Origin: Mobula hypostoma
Taxonomy: Eukaryota
Assembly: GCF_963921235.1 (NCBI RefSeq)
Contig: NC_086108.1
Location: forward strand, 72,418,001-72,482,000
DNA length: 64,000 nucleotides
Direction of reading: 5' to 3'
This document shows positions 1,700-56,984 of this stretch, piece by piece. The translations under genes were made by a program, and so were the position numbers. Position 1 is the first letter of the stretch; every line of letters begins with the position of its first letter. The notes beneath the pieces are model-generated. The model made no database searches, had not been told where the DNA came from, and saw only the letters and a list, made by a program, of their open reading frames with translations.

Positions 1700-2580
1700 C
1701 AGAGAGAGACATCACAGAAAGCACCTGGCTCAGGAGGTGTCCCTGGCCATACCCTTAGATACTGTGCAAATTAGCTGGCCCGGTTATTTGCAGACATTTT
1801 TCACCTTTCCCTGTTTCAATCTGTGATTCCCACCTTTTTTAAGAAGAATACTGTCATCTCAGTATGCAAGGGAAAAAAAACACAGGATTACATGCCTTAA
1901 TAACTGCAACACACACAAAATGCTGGAGGAACTCAGCATGCCAGGCATCCCTCCAGCATTGTGTGTGTGTGTGTGTGTGTGTGTGTTGCTCGGATTTCCA
2001 GCATCTGCAGATTTTCTCTTGTTGTGCCTTAATAACCAGTGCCTGGTGGCTTTGACATCTACCACATGAAGTGGACCCAGATATCTTGCTGACCACCAAA
2101 ACTCGTATACAGTTGATGCCACCTCCCTGGCCCTACACTCATCCCTGGAGCAACTAGACAATAAAGACATCTATGTTAGACTATTTATTGTTTACAACTC
2201 TGCCTTCAAAATCTTGGAGCATTTTGGACACATCTCAGCAAGTCACATCAACCAATCTCCTGTCCGTGGACTCTGTCTACACTTTTGTCTGCTTTGTAAA
2301 AGCAGCCAGCGTATTCAAAATCTCCGCTCGCATGGGATATACTCTCTTCTTACTCACTCCCCCTCACCCCCGCAAAGGAAGAAGATCCAGAAAGCATGTG
2401 TGACTAGGCTCAAGGATAGATTTCACCCCACTGTTAGAAGATGACTGGATCCCTAGTAAAACAAAATGGACTCTTAATTCCTTGTTCTGCATTCAGTTTT
2501 CGCTTTACTGTTTCCAGTTCAGTCTTAATATATTGCGGTAATGAAGTGATCTGTATGAGCTGTATGCAAGACAAGTTTTA
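1700..2580 (+). mobile_element. Rex1/Babar-like non-LTR retrotransposon, decayed RT fragment with internal deletions (interrupted at 1905-2024)
   Basis: Broken frames resemble Rex1-type RT (KAPG..GVPG, ADIFHLSL, VRLFIVYNSAF). The sequence is similar to the other Rex1-like copies at 54020-56080 and 12585-13985. Confidence 0.6.
1905..2024. mobile_element. Short fold-back insertion derived from PLE 3' terminus, with expanded (TG)n
   Basis: Inverted arms GCAACACACACAAAATGCTGGAGG / CCTCCAGCATTGTGTG..TGTTGC. Perfect 12-bp flanking direct repeat TGCCTTAATAAC at 1893-1904 and 2025-2036. Confidence 0.8.
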
Positions 2581-2829
2581 GAATAAGCACCGGGGGAACA
2601 ATCTGAGCTGAAAAGTATGGGTTAGTTAAATACTTTACTTTACTTGATACTTAATAGTTCATCCTTTGGCAGGCATGGAAACAAGAATCAACATAGCATC
2701 TTCTTGCTGCAAGTTTCTATAATTCACCCAAGTGTTCATATTTAATAATATTGAAATGATTTCATGCATTTTCTATGGTCAAATGTGGTAGAAATCCAAA
2801 TTAAATGTTGCTAAGTTGAAGAAGAGTAA

Positions 2830-3290
2830 ACAAAAACGAGAAGTGCTGGAAGCAATCGGCAGGTCAAGCAGGAAAGGTGGACGGTTAAATAGTTAAATTT
2901 CAGGTCCAGACCTTTCATCAACACCGGGGAAGAGAGGGAAAACAAGTTTTAGTAGCAAAGAAGATGGGTCAAGAATGGGTTGATAAAAAGCATATCTTTG
3001 AAAAGGTGAGTCCAAATGGGCTAATGCCCATAGTCTCACTATTGACAACGCATACTTTGCAGGCATCTGTCCCATTAACAGATCTGGACTTGCTCTGACA
3101 GAAATATTCCCTCTGTTCTACTCATCCCCCTCTCACCTCTTCTGTCTGAACTAATTTGTTCCCCTCTGTATCTGTTCTGATGAAGTGTTCCAAACCTGAT
3201 ACATTAATTCTGTTTAGCTTTCCACAAATGCTGAATGACCCATGAGTATTTCCAGTATCTTTTATTTCAAATTTCCAGCAGCTGTAGTTT
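2830..3290. mobile_element. Older, diverged inverted pair of PLE 3'-terminal modules
   Basis: Left arm (AAGTGCTGGAAGCAATCGGCAGGTCAAGCAG...CCTTTCATCA) is the reverse complement of the right arm type (TTCTGATGAAG...TGCTGAATGACC..GAGTATTTCCAG..TTTCCAGCAGCTGTAG). Confidence 0.55.
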
Positions 3291-5407
3291 TTTAATAAAA
3301 AAATAACGGAAGTGTGTCTGTGAGGGTAAGTGTTAAATCAAAGAAGTTCTTGATTGATCGAATTAAAAAAACATTTTCTGACATGAATGCAAATACTTCT
3401 ATTTCTGCTTTTGTTTGGTCAGTGGTTTTTCCTCTTTAGCTACTCTGAACAAGTCAGAAGAAAGAAAATTTGCGAAAAAGAAATTTTCATCAACTGTGGT
3501 TCATCACTCAATCAATGGTTTATAGGTTTTTTCCCCCACAAGGGAGGTACTGTAATGAGAAATCTGCAGAAGTTGCCTTTTACAGTCTATGCTATGGGAA
3601 CATTTTATGCAACATTGTCATAACTTGGTTACATCATTGGATGTGTATTGTCATCAGGGCAATTTTGTTGGATTTTCGAAGAAGTCCTGTTATAAATAAC
3701 ATTCTGTTTCTATTCATTATATCCAGTTATGGTCGAAAATACTTGCATGGTATTTAGGACTGCATTTAGCATTTGAAGTGTTTTGCCTTAAAATCAAAAA
3801 TACTGTTGGAGAGGCGAATGAGATATATTTAGAACTGTGGAAAATAGTATTGATTACCTCTGATTAATCTTGATCTAAGATTTGTACTGGTTTCATTTAT
3901 AAATCATCTCAGTTATTAAATTTGGCATTCCTTCATTTGAAGTATTTGTTAATTAATAGTGCTGGAGGGACTGCAGGTGGGGGTAAGCCTCTAACATTGT
4001 GGCTTCGATTCTTTCACTTGCACTTTGTTTATGTATAGCTCTTTACTGGAAGAATCGCTGAACTGATCCTATAGTTTCATGTGTGCTTTAAACTTGGATT
4101 ATCTTCTGTGTATAGATTTTGAGTATAGTTGGGACAGAAATCGAAAGTGTAGCTTCACGTTACAAAATCTCCACGTAGAGTCTTGTTGCTACCTCTCTAT
4201 CCATTTCACTGTTCCAGATCCTATCGACCTTCATGGTTTCCCTCATTTTCATCCAGCCTGACAAAATGATTGTTCTTGTGTCCTGATTATTATGTAACTT
4301 GTTAATTTTTCTGAAGGTCTGTCTTCTGGTTGCCTGAAACATATTAAGTATGTGAATTGTCAGGAAACACAATTATTTTGGAATTGAAGGACCTTTTAAA
4401 GTGTCTGCATATATTTGAATTAAGTATGTTCAAATAGTTACAAAGCAGTTTTGATACTAAAATAAGAGGACTCTATCAATATGGTCATCTTGATCACTGC
4501 ATTGACTGCTTTACGAAATGCTTCTGAGCATTTAAGGTGCATTTTTTCATTTATAGTACTGTTTTAATCAATTTTTATTGTTCTTCCATAATTATTTCAC
4601 TGAGTGCAGTAGACTTATTCGAATTACTGCATCACCTCAGTGGGATCTAGCCAGAATTTGTTAACTCTCTGCTTACAAATCTTAAATAGGAGCTTGTGCA
4701 TACCTGCGCTGGAGGAAGTGATTCTTATATTCTAGTCATCAACAGATGTTGCTGTCTGCTCTTCTTTTAGTTAGTAATATTCTCCTAAAAGTGAAGTTAG
4801 ATCATCACTGGTGGCATTCGGTTTTGGTCAAAACTGAAAATGATGATTCTAGTTGACTTATCTGATTTGTATGCAGAAAATGCTGCAAGTGTGGTCATTT
4901 TAAAATCCCTGAAAACTGCTGCAATTAAAACAAAGTAATTTCCAGAAACTTCTGGGAGGAATTGTTCAATGAGTGTAAGTAGTGGTCAAGATTAGAATTT
5001 TTGTTTACTAAGTATGAACATGTTACCAGAATACTGAGAGTATTCTAATTAAATCTAATATAACTTTCTCCTTTTCCCTTGGTGACTGAAAATTGTGGAG
5101 CTATCTGACCCATTTACTGTTTGTAACAAAGTAGAAGAGAAAATGTGAGTATGATGTATAGTTTGAGTCCAATAATAAACAAAATACATTTTCTTGCATT
5201 CTGCTGTCATATGTGGTTACTCATCTAAACAGAGTGTCATTAAAGACTGTTCAATCTTAAAGGTCAGATGAAGCTGGAATTGAACCATCTTGTGGGAAGG
5301 AAGGTTAAGTGTTTCTGTGATAACATTGTACAGAAGTACAGCAAGCTGGGATTTTCCTTTATGGGTCAATAATTGATCAGAATTAGAGCAGCATGAGAGC
5401 TGTAAAA

Positions 5408-9819: not shown

Positions 9820-10112
9820 AGCAAAGGTTGTGGCTCTGAGCCTGTTCCTTAAACTTCGATCCATAACAGTACTATATGAAGGGAGAGCTGCACTGTCAAA
9901 GGTATTAAGTCAAGGACCATGGCATTATTTTGCCGGTATATATCCTTCAAATAAATTATCTCACCATTGAAATGTTGCTATTTGGAAATTGGTTTAGCGT
10001 GTCCTAGAATATTAAAAAAATGATCACATGACACAAGTTCTTCATTGGTTAATAAAGTCTTTGCTATATCCTGAGTTTAGGAAAAGTACCATATAAATGT
10101 AATTCTTCCTTT
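9820..10112 (+). mobile_element. DeuSINE-like (AmnSINE1/SacSINE1-type) SINE, decayed
   Basis: GAAGGGAGAGCTGCACTGTC..CCATGGCATTATTT..TATCCTTCAA..ATTATCT..TTCATTGGTT..CCATATAAATGTAATTCTT matches the order of Deu-domain and tail motifs as I recall them. Confidence 0.6.
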
Positions 10113-10260
10113 TGTGCTGTCATTTCCTGAGCGTAAATTTTAGCTAATTTCATTGAACGATCCTACTGTAGGTTTTTACAGAACTGTTGTAAATACTCCT
10201 GAAAATTGCCCTTCATCTTGTTTTAGAACACATTGGAATTTCAGGTTATGAAGCATTAGA

Positions 10261-11027
10261 TAAAAATGATCGAATGCTTTCCCAGCATGGGCTTCCTGTC
10301 GGGTACAGGTATTGATTTTAACCAACATTTCAATGACAAACTCTGCCATCTTCATCAGCAATGATGCCTAGGCATGTCCAGGCTGGTGGTATTTATACCC
10401 CTGTCATTCATCGCTCCTGATTGGTTAGTCCTCATCCAATCAGGTTTCTGCTGTCCTACCTTGTTACAATCAAATTCAAGTTCTTACTTTGAACAATACC
10501 TTCGTCTTCATAAAATTCCTTTCCTCTAGTTTTACTTACAATGGCTTCCTTCACCAAGCAGTCCCAAAAGCCATTGGTCTAGCACAGTAGTTTTGTGCCA
10601 TGGAAACCTGCATCAAGGAACACAGGAGGTGTATCCGTTTGGGTTACTTGAAGAAAATAGTGGTAGTAGAACATTGCATTTGCAATGGCCGTGGGATTGA
10701 CTTTGACGGCACAGTACTACAGTGGCAAGCCAATGGGTTTTAGGACTACCTGGTGAAGGAAGCTGTTGAGATAAAACTAGAGGAAAAGAATTTTCACAAA
10801 GACGAAAGTCCTGCTCTAAATAAGAACTGGGATTTAATTGTAAACAAGGTGGGACAGTGGAAACCTGATTAGATGAGGAGAAGCCAATCAGGAGGGACAG
10901 ACGAGAGGGTGTGTATGTACTACTGGGCTAGTCATGCCTAGGCGTCATCCCTGATGAAAATGGCATTGAAAGAGTTGGATAAAATCAATATCTGTGCTCT
11001 GCTGGAAGTCTGAGAAAAGTTTATTCT
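10261..11027 (+). mobile_element. Penelope-like element: GIY-YIG endonuclease C-terminal fragment with inverted terminal duplication
   Basis: From 10600 the frame reads METCIKEHRRCIRLG..VVEHC..GRGIDFD..F*DYLVKEAVEIKLEEKNFHKDES..LNKNW. Left arm ~10290-10599 is the reverse complement of right arm ~10707-11010. 10-bp direct repeat AAGCATTAGA at 10251-10260 and 11028-11037. Confidence 0.8.
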
Positions 11028-11735
11028 AAGCATTAGAGAATCAGTATCTGATCTCTTTAGTGAATACTGTTGCTTAAAGGATATTTGAAGTTATTCTGAA
11101 CTGGGTGAAAGATTTCATTGGCATCCAGCAAAATAATCTGTCTTGTTTGTACTGCAGCTAATAACAGGCAAGATGTTTCACACTTGGTTCAAAGGAAAGA
11201 CAAATCAATTGTAAAGGAGACATATGGTTATTAAAGTGTTACTGACAAAGATAGATTTAAACCTTAGCAGTACATTATCCTATTATGAGTTTCCAGTAAT
11301 TGAGAAATGTTTGGGAGAATTAATGGAGTTTGTTGTACATGTGTCCCTGATCCCAAATGGAGCAGCTTAATCAGGTAGAGAATTTGCTGGAGCCATTACA
11401 GATTGTAACGGCAACCATGAATAAAGAAGGGAAAGACCAGCCATGCTTTCAACGTCACATATCTATTCAGTATTCCAAGCTAAATTTCGCTGTTGTGAAA
11501 TTTTAGTTCTCTTGAGAAATTAATTGTGCTCTTGAGTTAGACAGTTAACTCTACAGGGAAATGAGTTTGTATAGAAACCGGGTGACTATATTTGTCTGGG
11601 ACATTATGAAAGCTGAATAGATTTCAGGTCCACTTTTGTATGTTCAAATAATCCATAAGGTATGTAGATAGTGTCTTCAATTTTAAATATTTTTCTGTAG
11701 TGGCAACAAAATCTAAAAATAATTTTGTTACATGA

Positions 11736-11975
11736 CACAGGGTATCAAGGCCTAGTCTTTGAAGCTTATTGATTAATTTTGAGGGGTTGATAGAGTTGAA
11801 TGCAGAGCTATAGTTAATAAAGAGCATCTTGATGTATGCATCTTCACTATCCAGATGTTCCTGGGTTGAGTTGAAGAGCCAATGAAATGCTGTCTACTGT
11901 TGACCTGTTGTGATGGTGGATCCAAGTCACTCCTCAGGCAAGAGGTTATATGTTTCATGATCAACCTCTCAAAGT
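11736..11975 (-). mobile_element. Rex1/Babar-like RT fragment
   Basis: ORFs give MKHITSCLRSDLDP and [27 protein letters not shown]. Confidence 0.75.
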
Positions 11976-12584
11976 GTCGTAGCTAATAATTTAAAAACTA
12001 AAATAACTGGAGCCCAGAACATTCACCCTCTTACGACTCAAACATAATTATTTTACTGGTGCTAAAGGAGAGCAGCATGGACACTGTCATCCACACTGTT
12101 CTGAAGCCTGGATAGAAAGCAGCTGTTTATACAGTATTGGATTATCAGTTATGGATAATGGCCATTTGTTAAATTATATATGTTTGAATTCTTTACTAGC
12201 AAGATCAATTGTCATTCACAATAGAAGTGTTCAAAGTCAATTGAAACTTCCAGCTGACAGCCAAATATATTTTTAAGCTAGAAAAGCAATTGTTGCTGGG
12301 TGTATTTCACATCCCTTCTTTAGTCCTATCTTGTCTGTCTCTGTCACTCCCTATTCTGTAAAGGGAAGCTGCTGCATGTTCTTCAAGGTTGATTGCACAC
12401 TGCATAGTCATTCCCACCTATCTGTCCGCAGTCAGCGAGATGGGCTCTTGCGGTTTCACTTCAAAGATCTCCCTTGTTTGGGTTTGACCCTGCACCACTG
12501 CAGTCATCCTCATCTGGATGTTGTCTCTAACCCTTGCCTTACTGTAACACATCACAATGCACGTAATTGCTACTTGAACGATAG

Positions 12585-13985
12585 CCACTGAGGCAGGTTA
12601 TCACATTGTTCTTGGGCACCGGTATAATTGAAGCCTGCTTGATGTTTGTGGGTACCTCAGATGGCTGGAATGAGAAGTTAAACACATGTGAGAACTTCAG
12701 CCAGTTGATCTGCATAGGTCTTTAGTACCCTACCCGTTACCCCATCTTGACCAGATTCTTTCCATGGATTCATCCTCCTGAAGGATGCTCTCATGTTGGC
12801 TTCAGAGACTGAAATTACAGGGTATTTGGGGGTAATAGGAGATGGTGAAGGTGCCACCATGTCTTCTCAGTTAAAGTGAGGATAAAAGACATTGAGTTCA
12901 TTGAGGAGCGAAACCTTGTAGTCATGTATGCAAACACTAGGAAATCTGCAGATGCTGGAATTTCAAGCAACACACCTAAAAATTACTGGTGAAGGCAGCA
13001 GGCCAGGCAGCGTCTATAGGAAGAGGTACAGTCGACGTTTTGGGCCGAGACCCTTTGTCAGGAAGGGTCTCAGCCCGAAACATTGACTGTACCTCTTCCT
13101 ATAGACGCTGCCTGGCCTGCTGTGTTCACCAGCAAATTTTATGTGTGTTCCTTGTTGTCATGTATGTTGCCTGGTTTTACTTTGGAGGAGGTGATAGCTT
13201 TCAAACCCTGACCCAGCCGTCGAGCATCCTTCAGTGATTCCAGTTTGGTCTGCAGTTGCCACTTTGCATGTGAGATGGCTTTCTGGAGGTTATACCTGGA
13301 CCATTTGTATTTTACTTCATCGCCAAACCTGAACGCCAAGACCTGGCTCTCAGCAGATTGCTCATGTCTTGGTTCATCCAGGGCTTCTGGTTGGGGAAGA
13401 CTAAATGATTTTGTGGGGCACACTCATCCTCAACTGACTTTATAAATCCCATGAGAGCAGCGGTGTATTCATGTAGAACCTCTGAGTCTTTGAACGGGGC
13501 CCAGTCCACTCACTCGAAGCAGTCCTGCCACTTCTTTGCCTCCTGCAACCACCTGTCCGTTGTCCTTACTTTTGGAGTCTTGCTCTTTATCCTCTGCCTG
13601 TGTGCTGTTGGGAGAGGGACAGCTAGATGAGCAGATTTTCTGAAATGCAGTCTATAGACGGAATGGTAGGCATTCCACATGGTAGAATAATGGTAGTGTG
13701 GTATAGCAGTGGTCAAGTGTATTGGGACCCCTGGTGCTGCAGGTGATATGTTGATGATAATTGGGCAGAGGTTTCTTCAAGCAAACCTGATTGAAGTCCC
13801 CGGCAATGATTTGAAAGGCATTGGAGTAGGCTGTTTCTTGTTTGCTTATCGCTGCACTCGATACATTGAGTGCTGGCTGAACATCGGCTTCTAGCTGTAC
13901 GTAAACTGTGGTCATGATCACAGAGGGGAACTCCCTCTGTAAGTAGAATGGATGGCACAATCATTAGATGTTCCAGGTCAGGTTT
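12585..13985 (-). mobile_element. Rex1/Babar-like element, APE endonuclease to RT N-terminus (interrupted at 12931-13149)
   Basis: ORFs give PFYLQREFPSVIMTTVYV...IIAGDFNQ...TRGPNTLDHCYT, FPNQKPWMN and GQDGVTGRVLKTYADQLAEV. Confidence 0.85.
12931..13149. mobile_element. Fold-back PLE-terminus insertion with two head-to-head hammerhead-like half-sites
   Basis: Near-perfect palindrome centred at ~13062. 17-bp direct repeat with 1 mismatch: CCTTGTAGTCATGTATG (12914-12930) / CCTTGTTGTCATGTATG (13150-13166). Confidence 0.85.
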
Positions 13986-15321
13986 GTTAACTTGTTTGGC
14001 TGAAGGGCCAATATCCGTGCTGTTTTGCTACCTAACTTTATGTAAGAACAATTGAACCTAGAGATCCAAAATCACAAATCCTTGGTAAAACTATTAGATC
14101 AGCAGTTAAGTCAGTAGCCATGGGGCACTTGGGTTATAAATAGGACACTGAATGGAAAATCTTAATTATCCTTTGCAAATTTCTCATTATACCATAGTTG
14201 AATTATTAGTTTAAGGACTAATAGCTATACTCCAGGAATGATGTCATAGCCCTTGGGAAGGTGTGACGGGGTTGGGGGGGTGGGGTTTGAGGGGATGTCC
14301 ATACGAAGGTCTTCAATTACTTGTGTACAGAAATTCAATAAGCCAGTATCTTTTTATTTTAGCAAGGCAAAACCTAGCAGGTATGCAAGATTCTATGAGA
14401 TTTTGATGGAGTAAGAAAGGAAAAGCAGCTCAGTAACTTAATTAAAAATAACTAGAACAAAAGGGAAAAATGCGTACGACAAACTTGGGTGGGGCAGTAT
14501 GTGGGGAGAAAAACAGAATTAGCCTTTCAAGCTGACAAAAAATTTTGAAACTGAGGTGTTAACTCCACTTCTCTCTCCAAGGAAGCTGCATGATTTGTTG
14601 AGTAGTTCCACAGTTTCCTGTTCTAACTTTAGATTTTCAGCATCTGAAGGTTCTGCTTTTTAAATTATGGCAACAGTTATAAACCCCAAACAAACTCAGA
14701 GCCACTGGGAATGTTGCAGGTACACCTTTGCAAACATCATGGATGCTGTATTCATAGTCATTGGTGTGAATTAGGATCTCACAGCAATTCTGAAGAGATT
14801 TTTTAAAAATATGAGCACGGGAAAAGCTTTCTCTTTTCACGTTTCAGAGTACATTAAGTAGGCAGAAAGACATCGGCAAGTAATTATCTTCCTAATATTT
14901 CTGATGGGTTAAACTTCAGATTATGCAGACTAAAGCATTTCATTGTTGATTCAGTGTAAGAATAAAAATATTTTCTTCTCATCAGTTGACAATGTGTTTT
15001 TGTTAATGCTGTGAGATTGCTCACTAAATTGCTCCAGGATTGCATGAATTATGAGTGTTTTTGAACAGCATTTTGAATATGGAATGCAAAATAATGAATA
15101 GAGATTTGTTGTAATTATCCTGTCACTATAAAAATAACACGTCAGCCTGGTGACAAATGATTTATTATCCAGATTCTACTTGGCTAAAATATAACTTTGG
15201 GATCTATTGCCAACTATTAAACCAAAGTAAATACCCTCTCAATCATGTGCTAAGACCATGATACTGGCCAGCTTTTCTCTTTTAACAAATAACTGGGATC
15301 TACTTCTCAGCTTTTTCTCTC

Positions 15322-15420
15322 CAGTCCTGCCAAAGGATTTCGGCCTGAAATATCGACTGTACTGTTTTCCTAAATGCTGCTTGACCTGCTGAGTTCCTCT
15401 GTCATTTTGTGTGTGTTACT
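15322..15420 (+). mobile_element. PLE 3'-terminal module (decayed hammerhead-like motif)
   Basis: CAGTCCTGCCAAAGGATTTCGGCCTGAAATATCGACTG followed by ATGCTGCTTGACCTGCTGAGTTCCTC..TTTTGTGTGTGTT. Confidence 0.7.
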
Positions 15421-15699
15421 AACAGGTTCTATCTGTCTTTGGTCCACTAGATAGACCTGGTACTTTTATACCAAGAAGTGCTGAATGATTCTATGGTACA
15501 TTGTTCTACCCCTACAATCACCTTGTTGCAAAAGATAATATTGTTTTTAAAAACTCAAATTTATTTCATGTTTTTTTGATGTGTCTGAATTTAATCTTTA
15601 CAGACTATTGGCAATTAATCTAATGCATGTTGCTGACATTTATATTTTCAAGTAAGTAAGCAGCTAGTAAACTGCAAGCTTCATGTTAGTGCTGAGGAA

Positions 15700-16595
15700 A
15701 CTATTGATGAAAAGTTTTAAGAGATAGGATTTACATACATCTGAAAAGGCAGCAGCTTATCAGGGATAGTTAGCATGGCCTCGTGCGGTAAAGAGTGCCT
15801 CACTAATTTGCTTGAGTTTTTTGATGAGTTGATTAAGAAAATTAATTAAGGCAAAGATGTAGACATTGTTTATATTGATTTTAGTATGGGATTTGACAAA
15901 GTCCCAGGTGGTAGATGATTAATAGCTGATAGATGTTTAACCCAGGAGGTTAAGGCACATGGGATCCAACATAGTTTTGGTGATAGAGGACAGTGGCAGA
16001 AGAATGCTTTTCTGATTGGAAGTCTGACCAGTGATATACTGCAACATTCATTGCTGGGAGTCGTGTAATTTGAGATTTATATTAATGACCTGGGTGTAAA
16101 TGTGCAACGTATGAATAATGTGTGGGTGACATGGAAAATGGTGTTGGTGTGGATAGGAAAAAAGTTCTCTAGGTCTATTTGGGCAGAGTTTTGCCAGAAG
16201 GGATTTAATTCTGGCAAGTGCGAGATAATAAATTTCAAGAAATCAAGCAGTGTTAAGACTTATGCAGTATACAATAGGGTGTTGATGAAGAAAGTAACAT
16301 TAGGGTTCTGGTCCATAGTAACCTATGAAATCCAACAATCGTAGATGAGATGGTGAAGAAAGCCTATGACATGTTTGCCCTCATGGGTAGGGGCATAAAA
16401 TATAAAAGCTGCAGTGTAATGTTTTCAGAAACTTTGGTTAGAACGCACTTAGGCTATTATGTGAAATTCTGGTTGTTAAATGATAGGAGGGATGTGATTG
16501 CACCAGAGAGGGTACAGAGGAGATTCACCTAGACGTTGGAGGACTGTAAGTTATGAGGAGAGATCGAATAGTTATGGAATGAAGAAGTGAGGTGA
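15700..16595 (+). mobile_element. Old CR1 LINE RT/3' fragment
   Basis: CLTNLLEFF-like and VYIDFS..FDKVP codons. ORF 16350: VKKAYDMF..GRGIKYKS..LVRTHLGYYVKFW..ERVQRRFT. Confidence 0.8.
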
Positions 16596-16823
16596 GGGTT
16601 ACTGCATCCTCCAGCCCTTGAAACTTTTGGAATCCCATTATCCTTTGAGTGAAAAATATTTTTTTTGTCAATTTTCCTATAATGGGTCCACCAATTAACT
16701 GAAACTTGTACTACTACATGCAGACATTTTCTGCCATCTCCCTTTTTGTGGCCTGTCGTAATTTTGTACTCCTTAATCAAATGCCTCATCACTCTCCTTC
16801 ATTCCAAAACAGTAATGTACCCA

Positions 16824-16958
16824 CTAACATGAGAAAATCTGCAGATACTAAAAGTCCTAGCAATACACACAAAATCAGGGCCAAAGCTTCAACTGTGTAC
16901 TCTTTTCCATAGATGCTGCCTGGCCTTCTGAGTTCTTCCAGCAATATGTGCGTGTTGC
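16824..16958. mobile_element. Short fold-back PLE-terminus insertion
   Basis: Inverted 3' module joined to a forward module. Flanks CAGTAATGTACCCA (16810-16823) / CAGTAACATACCCA (16959-16972). Confidence 0.75.
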
Positions 16959-17119
16959 CAGTAACATACCCAGGCTGGTCAGCCTCTCCTAATAATGATG
17001 ATTCTCCAGCTGTGGTAACACTACCATCTCTACCACTATATCACCTGCGTTCTATATATTCTGTACCTTCCCAAGTAAGTATTTCACTATATCTACCCAA
17101 ACCACTCATTTCAAAATTG

Positions 17120-17850
17120 AGAAATAGAAACAGGAGTAGACCATTCAGCCCGTCATGCTGATTCTGGCATTGAGTAAGATGACTGTTGGTCATTTACCGT
17201 GCTTCTTGCTGCACCAATCCAATATTCTTTCATTTCTTTAATACATTTAATTTTATCTTGAAAATAGCAACTGACCATCTGAGCTGTCACGAGAAAACCA
17301 ATAATTCACTGTTCACAGGGTGACAAGCTTTATTTTTATCCCTGTCCTTATTTAAAGAGTGCGATCCTTGTTTTTAGCACTTTAACCAGGGGAAATGTTA
17401 TCTCAGCTTTGGCTTTCTACAAACCCAGAAGAAATTTGTTTCAAGGAAAACAAAATCTCTTGTTCTTCTAAACTCAAGAGAATACAAGTCCGGCCTGCTT
17501 CATCTCATCAGGATCAATCTGATGAACTTTTGCTACACTCCCTCATTGAGATGAATGGAGATCAGATATGCGTACGATTTTCCACATGTGGTTCCATCTG
17601 GATCCAGTATAATTGCAGTCAAATGTTGCTGCTCTTGTACTCATTAGCCCTTTTGCTTAATGTATTTGCATAATACGTTTCAGCACATGGACAACCAGGC
17701 TTCTGAAAACCAATACCTTTCAACTTCTTGTTAAAAGAAAACACCTTCCTATTTTGTCTGACAAAGTAGATAACATCTTTTTTTAATGTTATATTCCATT
17801 AATCATGTTCTCATTCCTTTACCCAGTTGGTCTACGTCATCCTGACTATC
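17120..17850 (-). mobile_element. Ancient CR1 LINE 3' fragment
   Basis: Starts with the CR1 3'-tail complement GAAATAGAAACAGGAGTAGACCATTCAGCCC, followed by degenerate RT-like sequence. Confidence 0.55.
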
Positions 17851-17894
17851 GCATCATTGGAAAGCACAACACTACTCGATTTTTGTAAATATTC

Positions 17895-18070: not shown

Positions 18071-18530
18071 AAAAATAATAGCAATTGGTAATATCCAGAT
18101 CACTTTAATGATTTGATTTAAAGACAAAAGCATGCAGGGTATTAGGAATAATCTTCCTGCTTTATGAAAGCGTGCAATGGGATCTTTGACAGGGCTGGAG
18201 GTTAATAATCACACCTGTAGGGCATCACCTCTCAGATTGCACTCCCTTGTTGTTACATTGAAGTGCCAACCTTGACGTTTGGAGACAGAAGAGCTCATAT
18301 TTGTGGGAGGAACTTAACAACCCAGCACTGATGAAGGGTCTCAGCCCAAATTGACGACTGTTTACTCTTTTCCATAAGATGCTGCCCAGCCTGCTAAGTT
18401 CTTCCAGCGTCTTGTGTGTATTACTTTGACTTTCAGCATCTGCAGATTTTCTCGTTTGTAATATTTGTGGGCCACAGTTGCCATCTAGACATTGCTTTTA
18501 ACGTGGATGGCACTAAGCCAGAGCTATTCA
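18070..18530 (-). mobile_element. DeuSINE-like fragment (interrupted at 18308-18460)
   Basis: GTGCAATGGGATCTTT..GGCATCACCTC..TGCACTCCCT is the reverse complement of the motifs seen at 9820-10112. Confidence 0.45.
18308..18460 (+). mobile_element. PLE-terminus insertion with short 5' inversion
   Basis: CTGATGA at 18328-18334 followed by AGGGTCTCAGCCC. Perfect 11-bp direct repeat ATATTTGTGGG at 18297-18307 and 18461-18471. Confidence 0.8.
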
Positions 18531-23247: not shown

Positions 23248-23259
23248 GCTCTTCTTCAG

Positions 23260-26436: not shown

Positions 26437-26534
26437 TATATCTGTAGTTTTGCATGTCGTATCAACTTAATTCCGCCCTCCCCCCACCCCGCCATTCTTA
26501 ACTCTGACACCTACAGGTCTAATTTTTTTTCTTG

Positions 26535-26770
26535 TCAGGAACCTCTGCACTATCTGTCAAAAGTAGAACTTCCCAGTGGCCAACCATTTTAATTCCAATT
26601 CCCATTTCCGCGTTGACATGAAGAGGCCATCCTCAGGGTGGAAGAGAACCACCTTGTATTCCAACTGGGTGGCCTCCAATCTGATGGCATGTATATCGAT
26701 TACTCCTTCCAGTTTAAAAAGAAAAATCCCTCCTTCCCCCTCATCTCTTCTATTTCATGCTCTGGCCTCT
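26535..26770 (+). mobile_element. Neptune-type PLE fragment, GIY-YIG C-terminus (left part, split by CR1)
   Basis: PVANHFNS..RVEENHLVFQLGGLQSDGMYID. Colinear with 58880-59120. Confidence 0.75.
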
Positions 26771-30734: not shown

Positions 30735-31032
30735 ACTCTCTTCTTCTCACCTGCCTACCTCTTCCCCTTGGTTGTCTACTTCTTCCCTTTCTTCTATGGT
30801 CCAATGTCCTCTCTATCAGATTCCTTCCTCTCCAGCCTTTTATCTTAACTACCTATTTGGCTTCACCTATCACCTTCTAGCATCTTCCTTTCCCTCTCTC
30901 CCGCCCACCTTTTTATTCTGACCTATTCCTCCTTCCTTTTCAGTTCTGAAGAACTGAAACATCAACTGCTTATTCATTTCCATAGATATTGTCTGACCTG
31001 CCGAGTTCCTCCAGCATTTTGTGTGCGTTGCT
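30735..31032 (+). mobile_element. Neptune-type PLE 3' UTR and terminal module (right part, split by CR1)
   Basis: Pyrimidine-rich UTR (TGGCTTCACCTATCACCTTCTAGC) colinear with 59120-59470. Ends with CAGTTCTGAAGAACTGAAACATCAACTG...GAGTTCCTCCAGCATTTTGTGTGCGTTGC. Confidence 0.8.
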
Positions 31033-31364
31033 TCTATTTTATTTTGTTTGGCTGTTGGTGATTGGAAGATCCTCTCATCCCAGGGATTATTTTTGTCTCG
31101 ACTACCTCCAATGCTAATATAAACTTAATTAAGGGGCTGAAGCCATGCAGTGCTCTAGGTGGAGCCTCAATATTTTAATGAATGTCCTTCTCATCTGTAG
31201 ATATATTAGTCAATAATTGGGCATCGGTGACCTATGTTTGAGATGTAGGTGGAAGGATTGAATGAGAAAGACAAATAATGTAAAGAAATACGAGTACAAG
31301 ACCCAAGTGAATGTCATGTAACTAAACCAGAAGTCAGATTTCATGGAGTCTGAAAAAGACAGAA

Positions 31365-34996: not shown

Positions 34997-35162
34997 ATCA
35001 CAAGAGTTTTGGCAGGTGTTGGAAATCCAGAGTAACACACAGAAAATGCTGGAGGAACATAGCAGGTCAGACAAAATCTGTGGAAAGGATTAAAGTGTCT
35101 ACATTTCAGGCTGAGACATGTGCTGCCTGACCTGCTAAACTACTCCAGCATTTTGTGTGAGT
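34997..35162. mobile_element. Short fold-back PLE-terminus insertion
   Basis: Inverted arms AAAATGCTGGAGGAAC..AGCAGGTCAG / CTGACCTGCT..CTCCAGCATTTT. Perfect 13-bp direct repeat TACTTATTTCACT at 34984-34996 and 35163-35175. Confidence 0.8.
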
Positions 35163-40865: not shown

Positions 40866-41289
40866 CAGACTCAAGGCACCAACATTTATGGGGGGAGGGA
40901 GAATGGGGTTGAGAGGGGAAAATGAATCAGCCACATTCTACCGGTGGAGGAGTCTCAATAGGCCAAATGACCTAATTCCGCTCCAATATTCTGTAATATT
41001 GAAAGAAAAGTGCTAATTTTGTTGAGTTATTTACAGTCCTCTACTATATTAAGGAAGTTTATTGTACAGTTTTCTCTGACACTCAATTTCTCTGCCAGTT
41101 CTTACTCCCCAATGTAATTTCTCCTGAATTGGTGGGTATTGGATCAATATTAACTTTCATCAAAATTTTCCTTTTATATTTCTATAGAAACTCTTAGAAG
41201 TTGTTCTGTTTCTTGCTAGCATTTTCTTTTCATGAATATCTTGGTCCTTGTTGGCTGATAATTAATAATCCTGAGGCCTTTTACTAATT

Positions 41290-42095
41290 GGGCTAATCTC
41301 AAATAATAATGAGGCAGCCTACAGGGAAGAAGTCATCACCCTGACACTGTGGTGTCAAGAAAACAACCTCTCCCTCAATGTCGCAAAAACAAGGGAGCTG
41401 GTTATGGACTACAGGAGGAATGGAGACAGGCTAGCCCCTATTGACATCAGTGGATTTGGGGCTGAGAGGGCGAACAGCTTTAAATTCTTCGGCATAAACA
41501 TCACCGAGGATCTCACATGGTCCGTACATACCGGCTGTGTGGTGAAAAAGGCACAACAGCACCTCTTTCACCTTAGATGGTTGAAGAAGTTTGGTATGGG
41601 CCCCCAGATACTAAAAACTTTCTATAGGGGCACAGTTGAGAGCATCACTGCCTGATATGGGAACTGTACTTCCCTCAATCACAGGACTCTGCAGAGTGGT
41701 GCAGACAGCCCAGAGCATCTGTAGATCTGAACTTCCCACTATTCAGGACATTTACAAAGATAGGTGCACAAAAAGGGCCCAAAGGATCGTTGGGGACCCG
41801 AGTCACCCCAACCACAAACTGTTTCAGCTGCTACCAGCTGGGAAATGGTATCGCAGCATAAAAGCCAGGACCAGCAGGCTCCGGGACAGCTTCTTCCACC
41901 AATGAGTTAAGCAATCAGACTGCTTAATTCATGCTGATACAATTGTATTTCTATGTTATATTGACTGTCCTGTTGTACATACTATTTATTATAAATTACT
42001 ATAAATTGCACATATCACATTTAGACAGATGTTTCCTGTTCATGTATATGAAGGATGTAAGTAATAAAGTCAACTCAAATAAAGTCAATTCGATT
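41290..42095 (+). mobile_element. Rex1/Babar-like 3' fragment
   Basis: AYREEV..WCQENNLSLNVAKTRELVMDYRR..NSFKFFG..DLTWSVHT..KKAQQHLFHLR..; HPNHKLFQLLPAGK..RLRDSFF. Repeated AATAAAGTCAA tail. Confidence 0.85.
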
Positions 42096-47630: not shown

Positions 47631-48669
47631 ACTAAGGAGGACATAAATAATCTTCCGGAAATAGTAGGGGACTGAAGGTATAGTGAGATGGAGGAACTGA
47701 GGGAAATACATGTTAGTAGGAAGTGGTGTTAGGTAAATTGAAGGGATTAAAGGCAGATAAATCCCCAGGGCAGATGGTCTGCATCCCAGAGTGCTTAAGG
47801 AAGTAGCCCAAGAAATAGAGGATGCATTAGTGATAATTTTTCAAAACTCTTTAGATTCTGGATTAGTTCCCGAGGATTGGAGGGTAGCTAATGTAACCCC
47901 ACTTTTTAAGAAAGGAGGGAGAGTGAAACAGAGGAATTATAGACCGGTTAGCCTAACGTCGGTGGTGGGGAAAATGCTAGAGTCAGTTATCAAAGATGTG
48001 ATTACAGCACATTTGGAAAGCGGTGAAATCATCGGACAAAGTCAGCATGGATTTGTGAAAGGAAAATCATGTCTGACGAATCTCATAGAATTTTTTGAGG
48101 ATGTAACTAGTAGAGTGGATGGGGAGAACATGGTTTTGGGGGTATGGTATTGATGTGGATAGAGAATTGGTTGGCAGACAGGAAGCAAAGAGTGGGAATA
48201 AACGGAACCTTTTCAGAATGGCAGGCAGTGACTAGTGGGGTACCGCAAGGCTCAGTGCTGGGACCCCAATTGTTTACAATATATATTAATGACTTAGACG
48301 AGGGAATTAAATGCAGCATCTCCAAGTTTGCAGATGACACAAAGCTGGGTGGCAGTGTTAGCTGTGAGGAGGATGCTAAGAGGATGCAGGGTGACTTGGA
48401 TAGGTTAGGTGAGTGGGTAAATTCATGGCAGATACAATTTAATGTGGATAAATGTGAGGTTATCCACTTTGGTGGCAAGAACAGGAAAACAGATTATTAT
48501 CTGAATGGTGGCCGATTAGGAAAAGGGGAGGTGCAACAAGACCTGGGTGTCATTGTACACCAGTCATTGAAAGTGGGCATACAGGTACAGCAGGCAGTGA
48601 AAAAGGCGAATGGCATGCTGGCATTCATAGCAAGAGGATTCGAGTACAGGAACAGGGAGGTTCTACTGC

Positions 48670-48806
48670 AAACGACAGGAATTCTGCAGATGCAACGTTT
48701 CAGTGAGTCCTGACGAAGGGTCTCGGCCTGAAACTTCGACTGTACCTCTTCCTAGAGATGCTGCCTGGCCTGCTGTGTTCACCAGCAACTTTGATGTGTG
48801 TTGCTT
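48670..48806 (+). mobile_element. PLE-terminus insertion with 5' inversion, inside the CR1 RT
   Basis: 13-bp direct repeat with 1 mismatch: GAGGTTCTACTGC (48657-48669) / GAGGTACTACTGC (48807-48819). Splits the CR1 peptide REVLL|LYKALVRPHL. Confidence 0.9.
48706..48741 (+). ncRNA. Minimal type I hammerhead ribozyme-like motif
   Basis: AGTC-CTGACGA-AGGGTCTCGGCCT-GAAA-CTTC-GACT. Helix I is AGTC/GACT, the core is CUGANGA plus GAAA, and the helix II hairpin is followed by a UC cleavage site at 48736-48737. Other copies show the palindromic helix III GAAACGTC. Confidence 0.7.
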
Positions 48807-49410
48807 GAGGTACTACTGCTGTTGTACAAGGCCTTGGTGAGACCACACCTGGCGTATTGTTTGCAGTTTTGGTCCCCTAATCTGAGGAAAGACATTCTTG
48901 CCATAGACGGAGTACAAAGGAGGTTCACCAGATTGATTCCTGGGATGGCAGGACTTTCATATGAAGAAAGATTGGATCGACTAGGCTTTTACTCGCTGGA
49001 ATTTAGAAGATTGAGGGGGGATCTTATTGAAATGTATAAAATTCTAAAGGGATTGGACAGACTAGACGCAGGAAGATTGTTCCCGATGTTGGGGAAGTCC
49101 AGAATGAGGGGCCACAGTTTAAGGTTAAAGGGGAAGCCTTTTAGGACCGAGATGAGGAAAAACTTCTTCACACGGAGAGTGGTGAATCTGTGGAATTCTC
49201 TGCCACAGGAAACAGTTGAGGCCAGTTCATTGGCTATATTTAAGAGGGAGTTAGATATGGCCCTTGTGGCTAAAGGGATCAGGGGTTATGGAGAGAAGGC
49301 AGGTACAGGGTTCTGAGTTGGATAATCAGCCATGATCATACTGAATGGCAGTGCAGGCTTGGAGGGCCGAATGCCCTACTCCTGCACCTATTTCCTATGT
49401 TTTTATGTTC

Positions 49411-53045: not shown

Positions 53046-53800
53046 TTCAATATTTTTATTAGTTTCTACATAAAAGAATACAGAGTACAAGGAAGTATAT
53101 ATAAAGGTCAAAAATGACTACTAATTACATTGTATCTACTCATAATAACAATCTCATTACCCCATATTCATGTAGGTTAAAGTTATATTGAAATATACTA
53201 ATTTATTACAAAAAAAAGAATCTAACCCCTACCAAGACTGAAGCTGATTATTAAGGAGAAAAAGGTAAAATTCTTTCTCATATAATAAAAATTAATAATA
53301 GCCAACATCTAAATTTAAACAACGAATTGAGGGTTTTGAAAGTTTTGAAAATAATTCAGAAAGGGTCCCTGCAATGTTTGAAAGTCTTGACGAGATTCAG
53401 AAATTGAACAACGAATCTTCTCTAAATCTAAGCATGACATAACGTCGCATAACCATTGAGCACGAGTAGGAGGAGAAACATCTTTCCATTTAAACAAAAG
53501 CGTCCTCCTAGCTATAAGAGAGCTAAAGGCCAAAATATGTAAATCCCATGTCTTCAACTTGATATCTTGTCCTGCAACAGTACCAAATAGGGCCATCAGA
53601 GGATTAGGCTTAAAATATACTTTGAAAAGTAAAGAAAAAGGTTGAACAACTTCCTTCCAATATTTTTCAAGACATAGACAAATCCAAAACATATGAATTA
53701 ATGAAGCTTCTCCATTATTACATCTGTCACAGTAGGGAGATATATCCGAATAAACACGAGATAGCTTATCTTTAGTCTTACGGACTCTATGTACCACCTT
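53046..53800 (-). mobile_element. L1/Tx1-clade LINE 3' fragment with TSD
   Basis: ORF 53315-53797(-) has the C-terminal zinc knuckle (CDRC..ASLIHMFWIC..YW). AATAAA and an A-rich tail lie at the left end. 12-bp direct repeat AAAAGGTTTTCT at 53034-53045 and 53801-53812. Confidence 0.88.
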
Positions 53801-54019
53801 AAAAGGTTTTCTATATATTGTACTATAGTTGTAATAAATTAGAGTATTTTTAATCTTAAATTATGAAATGTATTGTAACCACTGAATTCATACAGCACTT
53901 GTCCCGATTTAATTATGCAGACTAACAAAGATATTTGTAAAGTAAGGAGAAACTGAAACTCACATTTTAGGGGGGTTTGTTAATAACAAAAATATCTGAT
54001 ATTGCTGGTGATAAACACA

Positions 54020-56080
54020 AGAGGTTCTGTAGATGGTGGAATTCCAGCATGTCACACACAAAAGGCAGCATCCATGAAAAGGAATAAGCAGCTGACATTT
54101 CGCCATGTTTGTCATAGACTTTACAAAGGCAGTCTTAGTCAAGTGTATCCCCACAACATCGTTCAGTCTTCCCCGGCCAGAAGCCATGGACGAACTGAGA
54201 GATCCATAAGCTGCTGAGGGCCAGGTTAGTGGCATTCAGATTTGACAGCCATGTAAAACACAAAAGTTCCAGGTGGGATCTCCAGAAATCCATCTCACAT
54301 GTGAAGTAGCAATTCCAGACCAAACTTGAGTCACTGAAGGATGATCGATGGCTGTGGCAGGGTTTGAATGTTATCAATTCTTGCACAGTGAAACCAAGTG
54401 ACATAGTTGATGACAAGATAAGCTCAATGCAATTTATGCTCACTTTGACTGTAAAAACATTGAAGCATCTCCACAAAATCCCACTGTCCCTGGCGACTCT
54501 GTGAATTCAGTCTCAGGCTGACGTGAGAGCATCCTTCAGGAGAGTGAACCCACAGAAAGCATCTGGCCAGACAGGGGACCTGTGCTACTTAATTGGCTGC
54601 GGTGTTCTCTGATATCTTTAACCTCTCGCTTCAGCAGTCTGAGGTACTTGGGTGCTTCGAGCAGGCTTCAATTATTCCAGTGCCGATGGAGAATGCAGTA
54701 ACCTGCCTGTATGACTATTGTCCAGGAACATTTCCATCCACTGTGATAAATTGCTTTGAGAAGTTGGTGATGAAATATATCAACCCCTGTCTGAGAAATG
54801 ACTTGGATCTGCCCTAATTTGCCTACCAGAGCAACAGATGCCATTTCATTGGCTCTTCACTCAGCCCTGGAACATCTAGACAGGAAAGGTGCATACATCA
54901 GGATGCTCTCATTGACTAAAACTCTGCAGCCATTGCTATCATCCCCTCAAAACTAATCAATAAGCACCAAGACCTAGGCCTCAATACCTCATTGTGCAAT
55001 TTGATCCTCTTGTTCCTCACCTGCAGACCCCAGTCTGATTGGATCAGCAACCACGGCTTCTCCACAATTACCATCAACACAGGTGCCCCCTGCTCTACTC
55101 ACTTTATAGCTTTGACTGTGAGGCCAAGTACAGTTCCAATGCCATATTTAAGTTTTGCTGATGACACCACTGTTGTGAGCCGAAGCAAAGCTGGTGATGA
55201 GTCAGCATAGAGGAGGGAGATTGAAAATCTGGCTGAGTGGTGTCACAACAACAACTCAATGTCAGCAAGACCAAGGAGCTGGTTTTTGACTTCAAGAGGA
55301 GGAAACTTGAGGTCCCCATCAGGGGATCAGAATTGGAAAGTGTCAGTAACTTGATATTTCTCGGTGATATCATTTCAGAGGATCTCTCCTGGGTCCAGCG
55401 AGTAACTGCCATTATAAAGAACGCATGGCAGCTCCTCTACTTAGAAATTGGCGCAGATTCAGCATGTCATCTAAAACTTCGACAAATTTCTATAAATGTG
55501 TGGTGGAGAGTATATTGATTGATTGTACCATGGCCTAGTATGGAAACACTAATGCCCTTGAATAGAAAAAAAACAAAAAAGTAGTATGACCGAGTCCATT
55601 ATGGATAAAGCCTTCTCCAGCAATGAGCACATCTTCATGGAGGGTTATTGCAGGAAGGCAGCATCAAGGACCCCCACCATCCAGACAATGCTCTCTTCTT
55701 GCTGTTACCGTTAAGAAGGAGGTACAGGAGCCTTAAGTCCCTCATCCACCAGGCTCAGGAAGTTATTAGACCTCAGCCGTCAAGCTCTTGAATGAGAGGG
55801 GATAACTTCAATCACTCCAACACTGAACTGCTTCCACAACCTATGGACTCACTTTTAAGGACTCTACAACTTATGTTCTCAATATTTATTTCTTACTTTT
55901 TCCTTCTTGTATTGTCAGTTTGTTGTTTTTTGCACATTGGTAATTTATCCATCTCTGTCATCTGGAAGTTTTCATTATTGTATTGTCTTTTTATTTACGG
56001 TAAATGCCCACAGGAAAATGAATCTCAGATATATGGTGGCATATAGTGTATATACTTCTAGACTAGATTTACTTTGAAAT
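54020..56080 (+). mobile_element. Rex1/Babar-like element, decayed ORF and 3' UTR
   Basis: FPGQKPW; VFSDIFNLSLQQSEV.GCFEQASIIPVP..CFEKLV; FADDTTVV; LNVSKTKELVFDFKR. Confidence 0.85.
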
Positions 56081-56666
56081 TTGAGAAAGAAAGCATTCTT
56101 ACAATCAAAATGCTTTAAGGCATTGGGTCCTTTGAATGTTTTAGAAATACAGCAAAGATTTAAATTTACCACAAACTTAGTCTTATCTTGTGGTTATTAC
56201 AATAGACATCCCAATACTAAATGACTTCAGAGGCTGTGGGAATTTGGTATATAATACATAATGCTCTTACTAAAACAAGACAGCTATAAGGACATCTGGC
56301 TTCCCTTTTTAAGATGTGGATTCAACTGTCAAGGAGGAGGAACTACAGTTTTTTTTTCTCTTCTCTATTATTTTGTTATTTTTCTCCTGCCTTCCATCCT
56401 GCCTTCCATCCGGGAGAGAAGCTAGGCAGTTACTCTCTAGCCTCGTCACTTTGTGGCCTGTTGCTCAAAGGAAGAAGGATAACACTACAGGTTGACGTAG
56501 AAAGTAGACTCTTCCCAGTGGGAATATGCCTCCTGGTTTGATTAATAAGAAGGAACAACAATCTTAGCCCATTCCTAAGTATTGCAAGTGTATTTTATTG
56601 CATTAATAAGACAGTCTTTTAAGGCATAATTGGAATAATAGGGTAAGGATACTAATTCCCTATCAT

Positions 56667-56800
56667 CGCAAACACGAGGAAATCTGCAGATGCTGGAAAT
56701 TCAAGCAACACACATAAAAAATGCTGAAACATCGACTGTACCTCTTCCTATAGATGCTGCCTGGCCTGCTGCGTTCACCAGCATTTTTTATGTGTGTTAT
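56667..56800. mobile_element. Short fold-back PLE-terminus insertion
   Basis: AACACACATAAAAAATGCTG / CAGCATTTTTTATGTGTGTT arms. Perfect 11-bp direct repeat TTCCCTATCAT at 56656-56666 and 56801-56811. Confidence 0.85.
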
Positions 56801-56984
56801 TTCCCTATCATAATTGGTTTGATATTTTTAATAGAAAGAATCTTTTACCATCTCTGAGCACCATTAATAACCTTGGCTGCCAAATTTTTAGATGTGCTTT
56901 ATTCGTGAAAACTGTTTTGAAGTGGCAATCACAGCCAACCATTTTCTTTACTAAGGTTAGGTTTTACCGTAAAAAGCAAAATTA

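Follow-up and report, generated by a model that had tools for sequence, protein, structure and literature searches.

Insertions of canonical EN+ Penelope-like elements (PLEs) are described, in the available text of three sources, as carrying an adjacent inverted, 5'-truncated copy and a one-sided tail of 30–40 bp (PMC8557442, PMC3846280, PMC2377424). The Fig. 2 legend of PMC8557442 presents the inverted truncated copy with its one-sided tail as the described PLE pattern, and the accessible part of PMC3846280 reports a head-to-head arrangement with a 31-bp tail and a target-site duplication (TSD) of 8–10 bp. The available text of PMC8557442 also places a Zn-finger-like motif between RT and EN in the Neptune clade and describes the origin of PLE inverted repeats and one-sided tails as unresolved. 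The seven small inserts studied here lie in a 64,000-nucleotide stretch of DNA (the window). They resembled EN+ PLEs in their head-to-head structure, heavy 5' truncation, one-end tail and variable TSD, in the hammerhead of the terminal repeat, and in an upstream GIY-YIG ORF with a Zn-finger-like linker. However, their arms were only 20–140 nt with no ORF left, and their TSDs were longer than the 8–10 bp of the rotifer examples.

In Schistosoma, paired minimal hammerheads on opposite strands, 100–700 bp apart, have been ascribed to truncated PLEs (accessible part of PMC4209133). Our inserts shared the ribozyme type (an extra base between 9 and 10.1, a palindromic 15.2–16.2 and a short helix I) and the opposite-strand pairing, whereas helix II was about 4 bp rather than 7–8 and most inserts retained only part of one ribozyme. 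For Anolis Poseidon in vitro, the available sections of PMC11167929 report that both strands are cut and extended, that ribozyme mutants insert normally, and that two start sites bracket the tail downstream of the hammerhead. Start sites around the tail, dispensable hammerhead cleavage and both strands cut and extended are points of likeness; however, Poseidon belongs to another clade, the head-to-head join was not reconstituted in those sections, and the TSDs here showed no strong AT bias (62% AT versus 60% in the whole window). Non-LTR retrozymes, as far as the accessible portions of PMC7229834 and bioRxiv 10.64898/2026.07.22.740005 go, are likewise short and non-coding, with a type I hammerhead and PLE pLTR ancestry, but form head-to-tail tandem units of fixed length, whereas the present inserts are head-to-head and variable, with a tail and a TSD. 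The literature searched, with Repbase Reports, Dfam and most subscription papers outside its scope, contained no description of this minimal form or family, nor counts of it.

In L1 twin priming, a single RNA supplies the two parts from separate segments that do not overlap. Two target nicks prime, the cDNAs are joined and a TSD results, as would be the case here, but both arms of the present inserts start at one terminal module and overlap.

Geometry of the inserts and their target sites

The initial annotation listed seven fold-back insertions of 120–220 bp flanked by direct repeats of 11–17 bp. These coordinates held for all seven, and TSD length varied over that range (Table 1). When the same direct-repeat search was applied to 1500 random intervals of 120–220 bp, the lowest score observed among the inserts (8) was reached 11 times and a score of at least 11 once. 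Comparison among the seven inserts also bore out that the TSD sequences were mutually unrelated.

Table 1. Inserts, parent element and related copies in the window. Arm positions are counted from the hammerhead cut of the terminal module (+, downstream; -, upstream).
Feature	Position	Strand	TSD (left / right)	Direct repeat	Structure
Insert 1, fold-back	1905..2024		1893-1904 / 2025-2036	12 bp, 0 mismatches	inverted tail-less 1905-1947 (+27..+68); forward tailed ~1950-2024 (~+45..+103)
Insert 2, fold-back	12931..13149		12914-12930 / 13150-13166	17 bp, 1 mismatch	inverted tailed 12931-13063 (-30..+104); forward tail-less 13062-13149 (-23..+66)
Insert 3, fold-back	16824..16958		16810-16823 / 16959-16972	14 bp, 2 mismatches	inverted tailed (+53..+102); forward tail-less (-13..+68)
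Insert 4, weak fold-back	18308..18460		18297-18307 / 18461-18471	11 bp, 0 mismatches	forward tailed 18322-18460 (from -34); inverted stub ~18 nt (+30..+47)
Insert 5, fold-back	34997..35162		34984-34996 / 35163-35175	13 bp, 0 mismatches	inverted tailed 34997-35117 (from -18); forward tail-less 35121-35162 (+24..+65)
Insert 6, fold-back	48670..48806		48657-48669 / 48807-48819	13 bp, 1 mismatch	inverted tail piece 48670-48693 (+80..+103); forward 48706-48806 (-32..+70)
Insert 6, inverted ribozyme piece	~48694-48703				~11 nt; inverted arm thus two pieces (24 nt tail + ribozyme)
Insert 7, fold-back	56667..56800		56656-56666 / 56801-56811	11 bp, 0 mismatches (or 14 bp, 1 mismatch)	inverted tailed 56667-56726 (+49..+106); forward tail-less from 56724 (-10); 3-nt overlap
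Decayed PLE coding remnant	58252..59051	+			RT thumb region, C-x4-C-x2-C linker, GIY-YIG endonuclease
PLE 3' region	59052..59505	+			pyrimidine-rich, then terminal module; hammerhead ~59347-59385, tail to 59505
Second GIY-YIG-region fragment, same PLE family	26531..26745	+			
Solo tail-less copy	30735..31033	+			~200 nt of upstream PLE 3' region included
Solo tail-less module copy	15300..15420	+			filled in relatives
Solo tailed module copy	54013..54102	-			internal deletion
Older related head-to-head pair	2829..3290				arms >100 nt upstream of hammerhead; no TSD left
Unrelated-family head-to-head fold-back	10261..11027		10251-10260 / 11028-11037		767 bp

Each insert had been said to combine an inverted and a forward piece of one module. 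A head-to-head inverted 5'-truncated copy was clear in six of the seven; at 18308 the fold-back was weak, the inverted stub matching at 14/18 positions and not ending at the usual outer end. All seven carried the tail of about 36 nt at one end only, and the outer ends of the arms fell at +65..+70 (tail-less) and +102..+106 (tailed). Arm alignment confirmed that the arms are unequal in length within inserts, and the internal junctions were private as claimed, each junction 20-mer being at least 6 letters off anything in the other six inserts. In insert 1 the forward arm has a TG expansion, owing to which its inner end was set by eye; the arms of insert 2 were identical at 78/87 positions. At least two sequence subfamilies of the module formed fold-backs. 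The inserts at 12931, 48670 and 56667 belong to one subfamily, to which no ORF in the window was linked.

Insert 6 lies within a CR1-like LINE whose host ORF has RVT_1. The initial annotation had named orthologous empty sites with both repeats as a refutation of its reading; all three CR1 paralogues hold a single repeat copy at this site, and a one-TSD model aligned to all three without gaps, whereas a two-TSD model required a 13-nt gap. At this one site, then, the variable TSD was made on insertion. Insert 2 sits in a multicopy host repeat, and its in-window paralogue is deleted over the site.

Contig sets from four relatives covered positions 10000–19400 only and hence three of the seven inserts. 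Those at 16824 and 18308 were filled in relatives. At 12931, two contigs from one run broke off at the edges of the TSD, leaving 37 and 24 letters unaligned. An empty site would look like this, but no skipping joint was present among the joints listed (3260 more were unlisted) and the host repeat is multicopy. The listed opposite-strand joints mark no new inversion junctions; they arose from contigs mapping across copies within the window.

The terminal module and its parent element

The aligned copies of the terminal module contain a minimal type I hammerhead, with core, helix I, helix II and palindrome. Stems I and II of the long-copy hammerhead folded at a z of -2.57, and minimum free energy folds of the four other module pieces (of five) were no better than shuffles. 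A search of Rfam, with E values as high as 1 accepted, returned no hammerhead family. The 19-nt tail motif gave 29 matches in metagenomes, all attributable to chance and confined to the motif, and none in viral contigs.

In the 1.3-kb copy at 58.2–59.5 kb, the module is joined to an RT-thumb/GIY-YIG remnant, a linkage seen in the 59347-type subfamily only; this upholds the proposal that the inserts derive from a hammerhead-bearing PLE terminus. The remnant is disrupted by stops and frameshifts, and neither a TSD nor an inverted partner was detected for this copy. It matched protein P0001 in tblastn (E 1e-40), which has PF26215 and a GIY-YIG match below Pfam's cut-off (E 0.00046) and whose nearest Atlas clusters are HTH_animal plus GIY-YIG proteins at 0.96; the Zn-finger-like C-x4-C-x2-C motif is found in both. 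A Pfam search of 25 window ORFs at E 0.01 gave no match for the PLE ORF pieces and no GIY-YIG. What the inserts have in common is the 3' terminus of a PLE of probable Neptune type, of which the window contains no full RT.

Upstream of the module, solo copies retain as much as 1.1 kb of the PLE, and copies in the window form a size continuum (solo ~0.12, 0.3 and 1.3 kb; fold-backs ~460 and 767 bp). The arms of the 2829–3290 pair aligned to each other with a score of 99.5 (shuffled maximum, 65). In the 10261–11027 fold-back, the two arms measure about 340 and 430 nt and show 76% likeness; both have a hammerhead core, and a coding remnant lies within the arms. Its protein had no relative among 13 candidates, and we label it a putative PLE from its architecture, its ribozyme core and a motif likeness. 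The copies in the window give no support to the separate non-autonomous system proposed in the initial annotation: the module ends an ORF-bearing copy, and longer and coding-arm fold-backs are present. Two candidate older fold-backs (14459–14660 and 35600–35755) did not exceed shuffled controls in arm-versus-arm alignment and were left out of the counts.

Arm ends and the template of the insertions

Seven of the 14 arms, in six of the seven inserts, extended past the hammerhead cut to 10–34 nt upstream, and none of the 14 started at the cut itself. The hammerhead-processed short RNA suggested as template is therefore not supported; the crossing arms exclude a linear cut RNA, though not a circle. 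Hundreds of contigs in the runs of all four relatives also read through the cut (loose ends before 16896).

The inserts, with their observed module identity, head-to-head geometry, one-sided tail, private junctions and passage through the cut, are probably insertions of a Neptune-type EN+ PLE, truncated to an extreme degree at the 5' end and dead on arrival, in a cartilaginous-fish-like genome, made by priming at both nicks on uncut RNA. The RT-GIY-YIG protein would nick both target strands 11–17 nt apart. From each free 3' end, the uncut element RNA would be reverse-transcribed, starting at either of two neighbouring internal sites (~+65 to +70 and ~+102 to +106, counted from the cut), so that only one of the two arms has the ~36-nt tail. 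The two cDNAs would end early and be joined head-to-head through a 0–4 nt overlap or a few extra letters, and gap filling would create the TSD. Cleavage and extension of both strands, the two start sites and the dispensable ribozyme would carry over by analogy from Poseidon in vitro, in another PLE clade; a single in vivo event primed from both nicks, and the route by which the arms are joined, are our inference. The earlier proposal of an independent target-primed insertion for each copy thus stands, with both-nick priming as its best reading. The mechanism is already known and the system is not a novel one; the inserts are mostly ordinary genomic debris. Their value is as material: they are abundant and TSD-bounded, with both primed ends and the join readable in one short read, and arm ends plotted across the genome would bear on two-nick priming, the in vitro start sites and hammerhead cutting in vivo.

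A competing explanation, which we consider unlikely, is run-off from a short uncut RNA starting just upstream of the hammerhead, the short arms being near-complete copies of their template. Candidates for such a template are a spliced RNA, the 5' module of the PLE transcript, and a distinct short pLTR RNA, non-coding and copied in trans. Consistent with run-off, stops clustered at -10 to -34 (7 in 160 nt at risk upstream of the cut versus 5 in 587 nt; P=0.006, post hoc, for 12 of the 14 arms in a sample picked for small size), hinting that the template begins or RT stalls there. Three crossing arms ended at -30, -32 and -34, at a splice-acceptor-like pyrimidine tract plus CAG; in D. virilis an intron ends at the 5' boundary of helix I (accessible part of PMC4209133), and internal initiation on pLTR-ORF junction RNA appears in the available text of PMC11167929. 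In the relatives, agreement of the loose ends upstream of the ribozyme fell (0.37–0.39) past about a dozen pyrimidines, hinting at a pile-up of 5' ends. However, the small-size selection counts against run-off, five of the 12 tested arms stopped well downstream of the cut, and the solo copies and the 2829–3290 pair reach 100–1100 nt further upstream. The contigs' own consensus runs on into the pyrimidine tract beyond -30, and an RT that stalled at the ribozyme hairpin or at bound protein would leave an identical accumulation of ends. All seven crossing arms stop within 34 nt of the cut, which is not expected from simple random truncation.

A fuller version is doubtful. In it, a dimeric RT with an obligate assignment of one strand to the tail site and the other to the tail-less site would make the arms as run-off products of an uncut RNA whose 5' end lies shortly before the hammerhead; the RNA would be the PLE transcript's 5' module or a dedicated short pLTR RNA. 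If it were true, cartilaginous-fish genomes would amount to a very extensive in vivo archive of PLE priming, and transcript start, nick spacing and the strand-to-start-site rule would be directly readable from such inserts.

Mobilisation in trans of a hammerhead-processed PLE terminus, linear or circular and retrozyme-like, is very improbable. The module's hammerhead is indeed of the minimal type I and shows the features given in the accessible part of PMC4209133, PLE-derived non-LTR retrozymes are reported from species including one cartilaginous fish (available text of bioRxiv 10.64898/2026.07.22.740005), the inner ribozyme piece at 48670 is joined within 1 nt of the cut, and one relative's run had many go-back joints on the module. 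Against it stand the arm ends given above and the window's lack of a tandem array of the module (all five tandem rows were unrelated or TG runs). Moreover, the ribozyme is preceded by the PLE 3' region instead of the end of a permuted monomer, and none of the 10 module copies listed has an intact core.

A MITE or other cut-and-paste fold-back element, suggested by small size, terminal inverted similarity and the very high module abundance indicated by summed contig depth in relatives (depth being no copy number), is hardly credible and, as the initial annotation held, largely refuted by TSDs of no fixed length, ends that differ by the tail, unique junctions with no common internal structure, and a module that is the end of an RT-GIY-YIG element and occurs in two subfamilies. 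The inserts are nevertheless a likely source of false MITE and microRNA-hairpin annotations; the best Rfam match was a sub-threshold mir-3926 on the 12931 hairpin.

Fold-back insertions and their flanks

The seven small fold-back insertions (named here by their start positions) are real, were made by a Penelope-like element (PLE), and represent a known pattern in miniature. All seven were present at the coordinates of the initial annotation, and the best direct repeats at their borders (TSDs) had the lengths that it had reported (see table). For insert 56667, an alternative reading of the border repeat is 14 bp with one mismatch. When the same border search was applied to 1500 random intervals as a control, the lowest observed score was matched 11 times and a score of at least 11 was reached once. 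The junctions were private, as had been claimed: no junction 20-mer came closer than 6 mismatches to any sequence within the remaining inserts. Insert 48670 sits within a LINE that has several paralogues inside the window, and a model with one repeat copy aligned gap-free to 3/3 paralogues tested, whereas the two-repeat model needed a 13-nt gap, indicating that this repeat arose on insertion. At the 12931 site, the sole in-window paralogue carries a deletion across the site. Inserts 16824 and 18308 were occupied in contigs of relatives (four organisms' contig sets aligned to 10000-19400) diverging by up to about 9%; thus, both inserts are old.

Insert arms share a terminal piece (the module) that holds a predicted hammerhead, and arm positions are counted from its predicted cut. 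Outer arm ends in the seven inserts formed two groups, +65 to +70 and +102 to +106 (the tail ends of 34997 and 18308 were taken from other alignments than the remaining outer ends). The longer outer end was found on one side only in 7/7 inserts, a tail difference of about 36 nt. The arms join head-to-head with their 5' ends meeting, and the inner ends +45, -23 and -32 were placed by eye at spots where the aligner stopped short or ran too far. Joins had a 2-4 nt overlap in 12931, 56667 and 18308 and 2-3 unassigned letters in 1905, 16824 and 34997; the 48670 join was complex. In a single case, the inverted arm of 48670 (48693-48704), the sequence passes abruptly from tail to ribozyme, and the ribozyme piece ends at most 1 nt from the predicted cut; this could be a later deletion.

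Positions of fold-backs, solo module copies and a coding fragment in the window
Feature	Position	Inner arm ends or extent	TSD (mismatches)	Remark
Insert	1905	+27 and about +45	12 bp (0)	
Insert	12931	-30 and -23	17 bp (1)	
Insert	16824	+53 and -13	14 bp (2)	
Insert	18308	-34 plus weak stub	11 bp (0)	
Insert	34997	-18 and +24	13 bp (0)	
Insert	48670	+80 and -32	13 bp (1)	
Insert	56667	+49 and -10	11 bp (0)	
Older related pair	2829-3290	arms >100 nt upstream of ribozyme		arm score 99.5 vs shuffled maximum 65
Head-to-head fold-back	10261-11027	767 bp	10 bp	family unrelated to module
Solo module copy	15300	about 25 nt upstream		
Solo module copy	30735	about 200 nt upstream		
Solo module copy	58.2 kb	about 1100 nt upstream		
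Second endonuclease fragment	26531-26745			

The module and its predicted ribozyme

A module profile built from the insert arms gave 23 window matches at E up to 1, while no hit in five decoys scored below E 0.26. The match at 59331-59505 forms the end of a 1.3-kb stretch. Farther upstream in this stretch, 58252-59051 is a decayed coding remnant that matches at E 1e-40 a 422-aa reference protein (P0001) labeled as from the ray Mobula hypostoma. P0001 contains PF26215 and a GIY-YIG match slightly below the Pfam cut-off (E 0.00046), and in the Atlas it lies closest to clusters of HTH_animal plus GIY-YIG proteins (score 0.96). Both P0001 and the remnant carry a C-x4-C-x2-C motif ahead of the endonuclease, a linker given as a feature of the Neptune and Nematis clades (PMC8557442). 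Because the module is joined to this RT/GIY-YIG remnant with its linker, its sequence places it at the 3' end of a Neptune-type PLE, as that element's terminal repeat. The window itself probably comes from a ray or a shark.

Common diagnostic letters in inserts 12931, 48670 and 56667, lacking in the other four, indicate that at least two subfamilies have given rise to fold-backs; the subfamily of those three inserts, the younger one, is not tied to an ORF inside the window. A TG run within the module has expanded to microsatellites in two copies (1960-1986 and 59436-59470). Very decayed module relatives lie at 14459-14660, 19583-19642 and 35600-35762; two of these are perhaps old fold-backs but were not counted as such, their arm-versus-arm scores being no better than shuffles.

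Aligned copies predict a minimal type I hammerhead with a 5-bp helix I, the core, an extra A before a helix II of about 4 bp, and a palindromic stub replacing helix III, features also listed in PMC4209133. An Rfam search of the window reported no hammerhead, one of five folded module pieces beat its shuffles (z -2.57), and the core was intact in 0/10 printed copies. The conserved A6 core position reads C in the 15300 copy (15323-15335) and in the loose-end consensus before 16896 in all four relatives' runs, at an agreement of only 0.62-0.65. An abundant module subfamily with an impaired ribozyme possibly exists.

Each arm of the unrelated fold-back at 10261-11027 bears a hammerhead core, and coding sequence is present in the arms too. 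Its family is probably another PLE clade. None of 13 candidates was a relative of its protein, and its putative Poseidon-like identity is based on architecture and motif likeness.

Template and priming

The simplest reading, which we consider quite probable, is two-nick priming on uncut element RNA with early stops and a head-to-head join. Two target nicks, 11-17 nt apart, would each prime one cDNA, one per start site, and both cDNAs would stop early before being joined; we infer that a single event employs both nicks, and likewise the joining step. In an Anolis PLE, cleavage and extension occur on both target strands, reverse transcription has two neighboring internal start sites with the tail between them, and ribozyme mutants still insert normally (PMC11167929).

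The predicted cut was crossed by 7/14 arms, spread over 6/7 inserts, and all seven end no more than 34 nt past it. Stops were denser in this stretch (7 per 160 nt at risk) than downstream of the cut (5 per 587 nt), a clustering not expected from random truncation (binomial P=0.006, post hoc; 12/14 arms from a sample picked for small size, leaving out the stub of 18308 and the tail piece of 48670). The template may begin or be spliced just upstream of the hammerhead: the ends of three arms, at -30 to -34, coincide with a site resembling a splice acceptor, and the relatives' loose ends there show about a dozen pyrimidines before agreement falls (0.37-0.39). PMC4209133 places a D. virilis intron end at the corresponding position. 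Reverse transcriptase stalling on the hairpin may also give stops upstream of the cut. A run-off account, in which the RNA starts just before a ribozyme that stays uncut and each strand keeps to its own start site, seems unlikely. Self-priming on an antisense template, proposed for palindrome-bearing head-to-head junctions (PMC3846280), seems to fit less well than two-nick priming, as the arms are unequal and overlapping and have two different outer ends. The initial annotation had named a hammerhead-processed PLE terminus as a possible template, but a linear hammerhead-cut RNA cannot have served, because no arm starts at the predicted cut (0/14) and seven arms, like the consensus of loose ends before 16896 in the four relatives (231-341 per run), continue through it.

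Known patterns and other elements

Parallels include inverted 5'-truncated copies with a one-sided 30-40 bp tail (PMC8557442, Fig. 2 legend), head-to-head pLTRs with 8-10 bp TSDs (PMC3846280), a 34-37 bp repeat with variable inverted repeats (PMC2377424), and opposite-strand hammerhead pairs ascribed to truncated PLEs (PMC4209133). Non-LTR retrozymes, the non-autonomous hammerhead-bearing PLE derivatives, are tandem (PMC7229834; bioRxiv 10.64898/2026.07.22.740005), whereas the window fold-backs are head-to-head; no retrozyme-like tandem array was found within the window. The accessible literature yielded no description of this PLE family or of the minimal fold-back form. In one relative's run (X14), depth is raised at 15382-15420 and go-back joints are numerous, spaced by 17-18 similar letters, which suggests that module-derived units form a tandem array in this organism.

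Several decayed LINE copies in both orientations, recognized by RVT_1 matches and repeats, occupy 19.5-23, 26.8-30.6, 37-40, 44.4-51 and 63-64 kb; presumably they belong to CR1. ORF pieces at 41275-41652 and 53318-53860, with ALKBH8_N (PF09004) and weak zf-RVT matches, are likely the ends of other LINE families.
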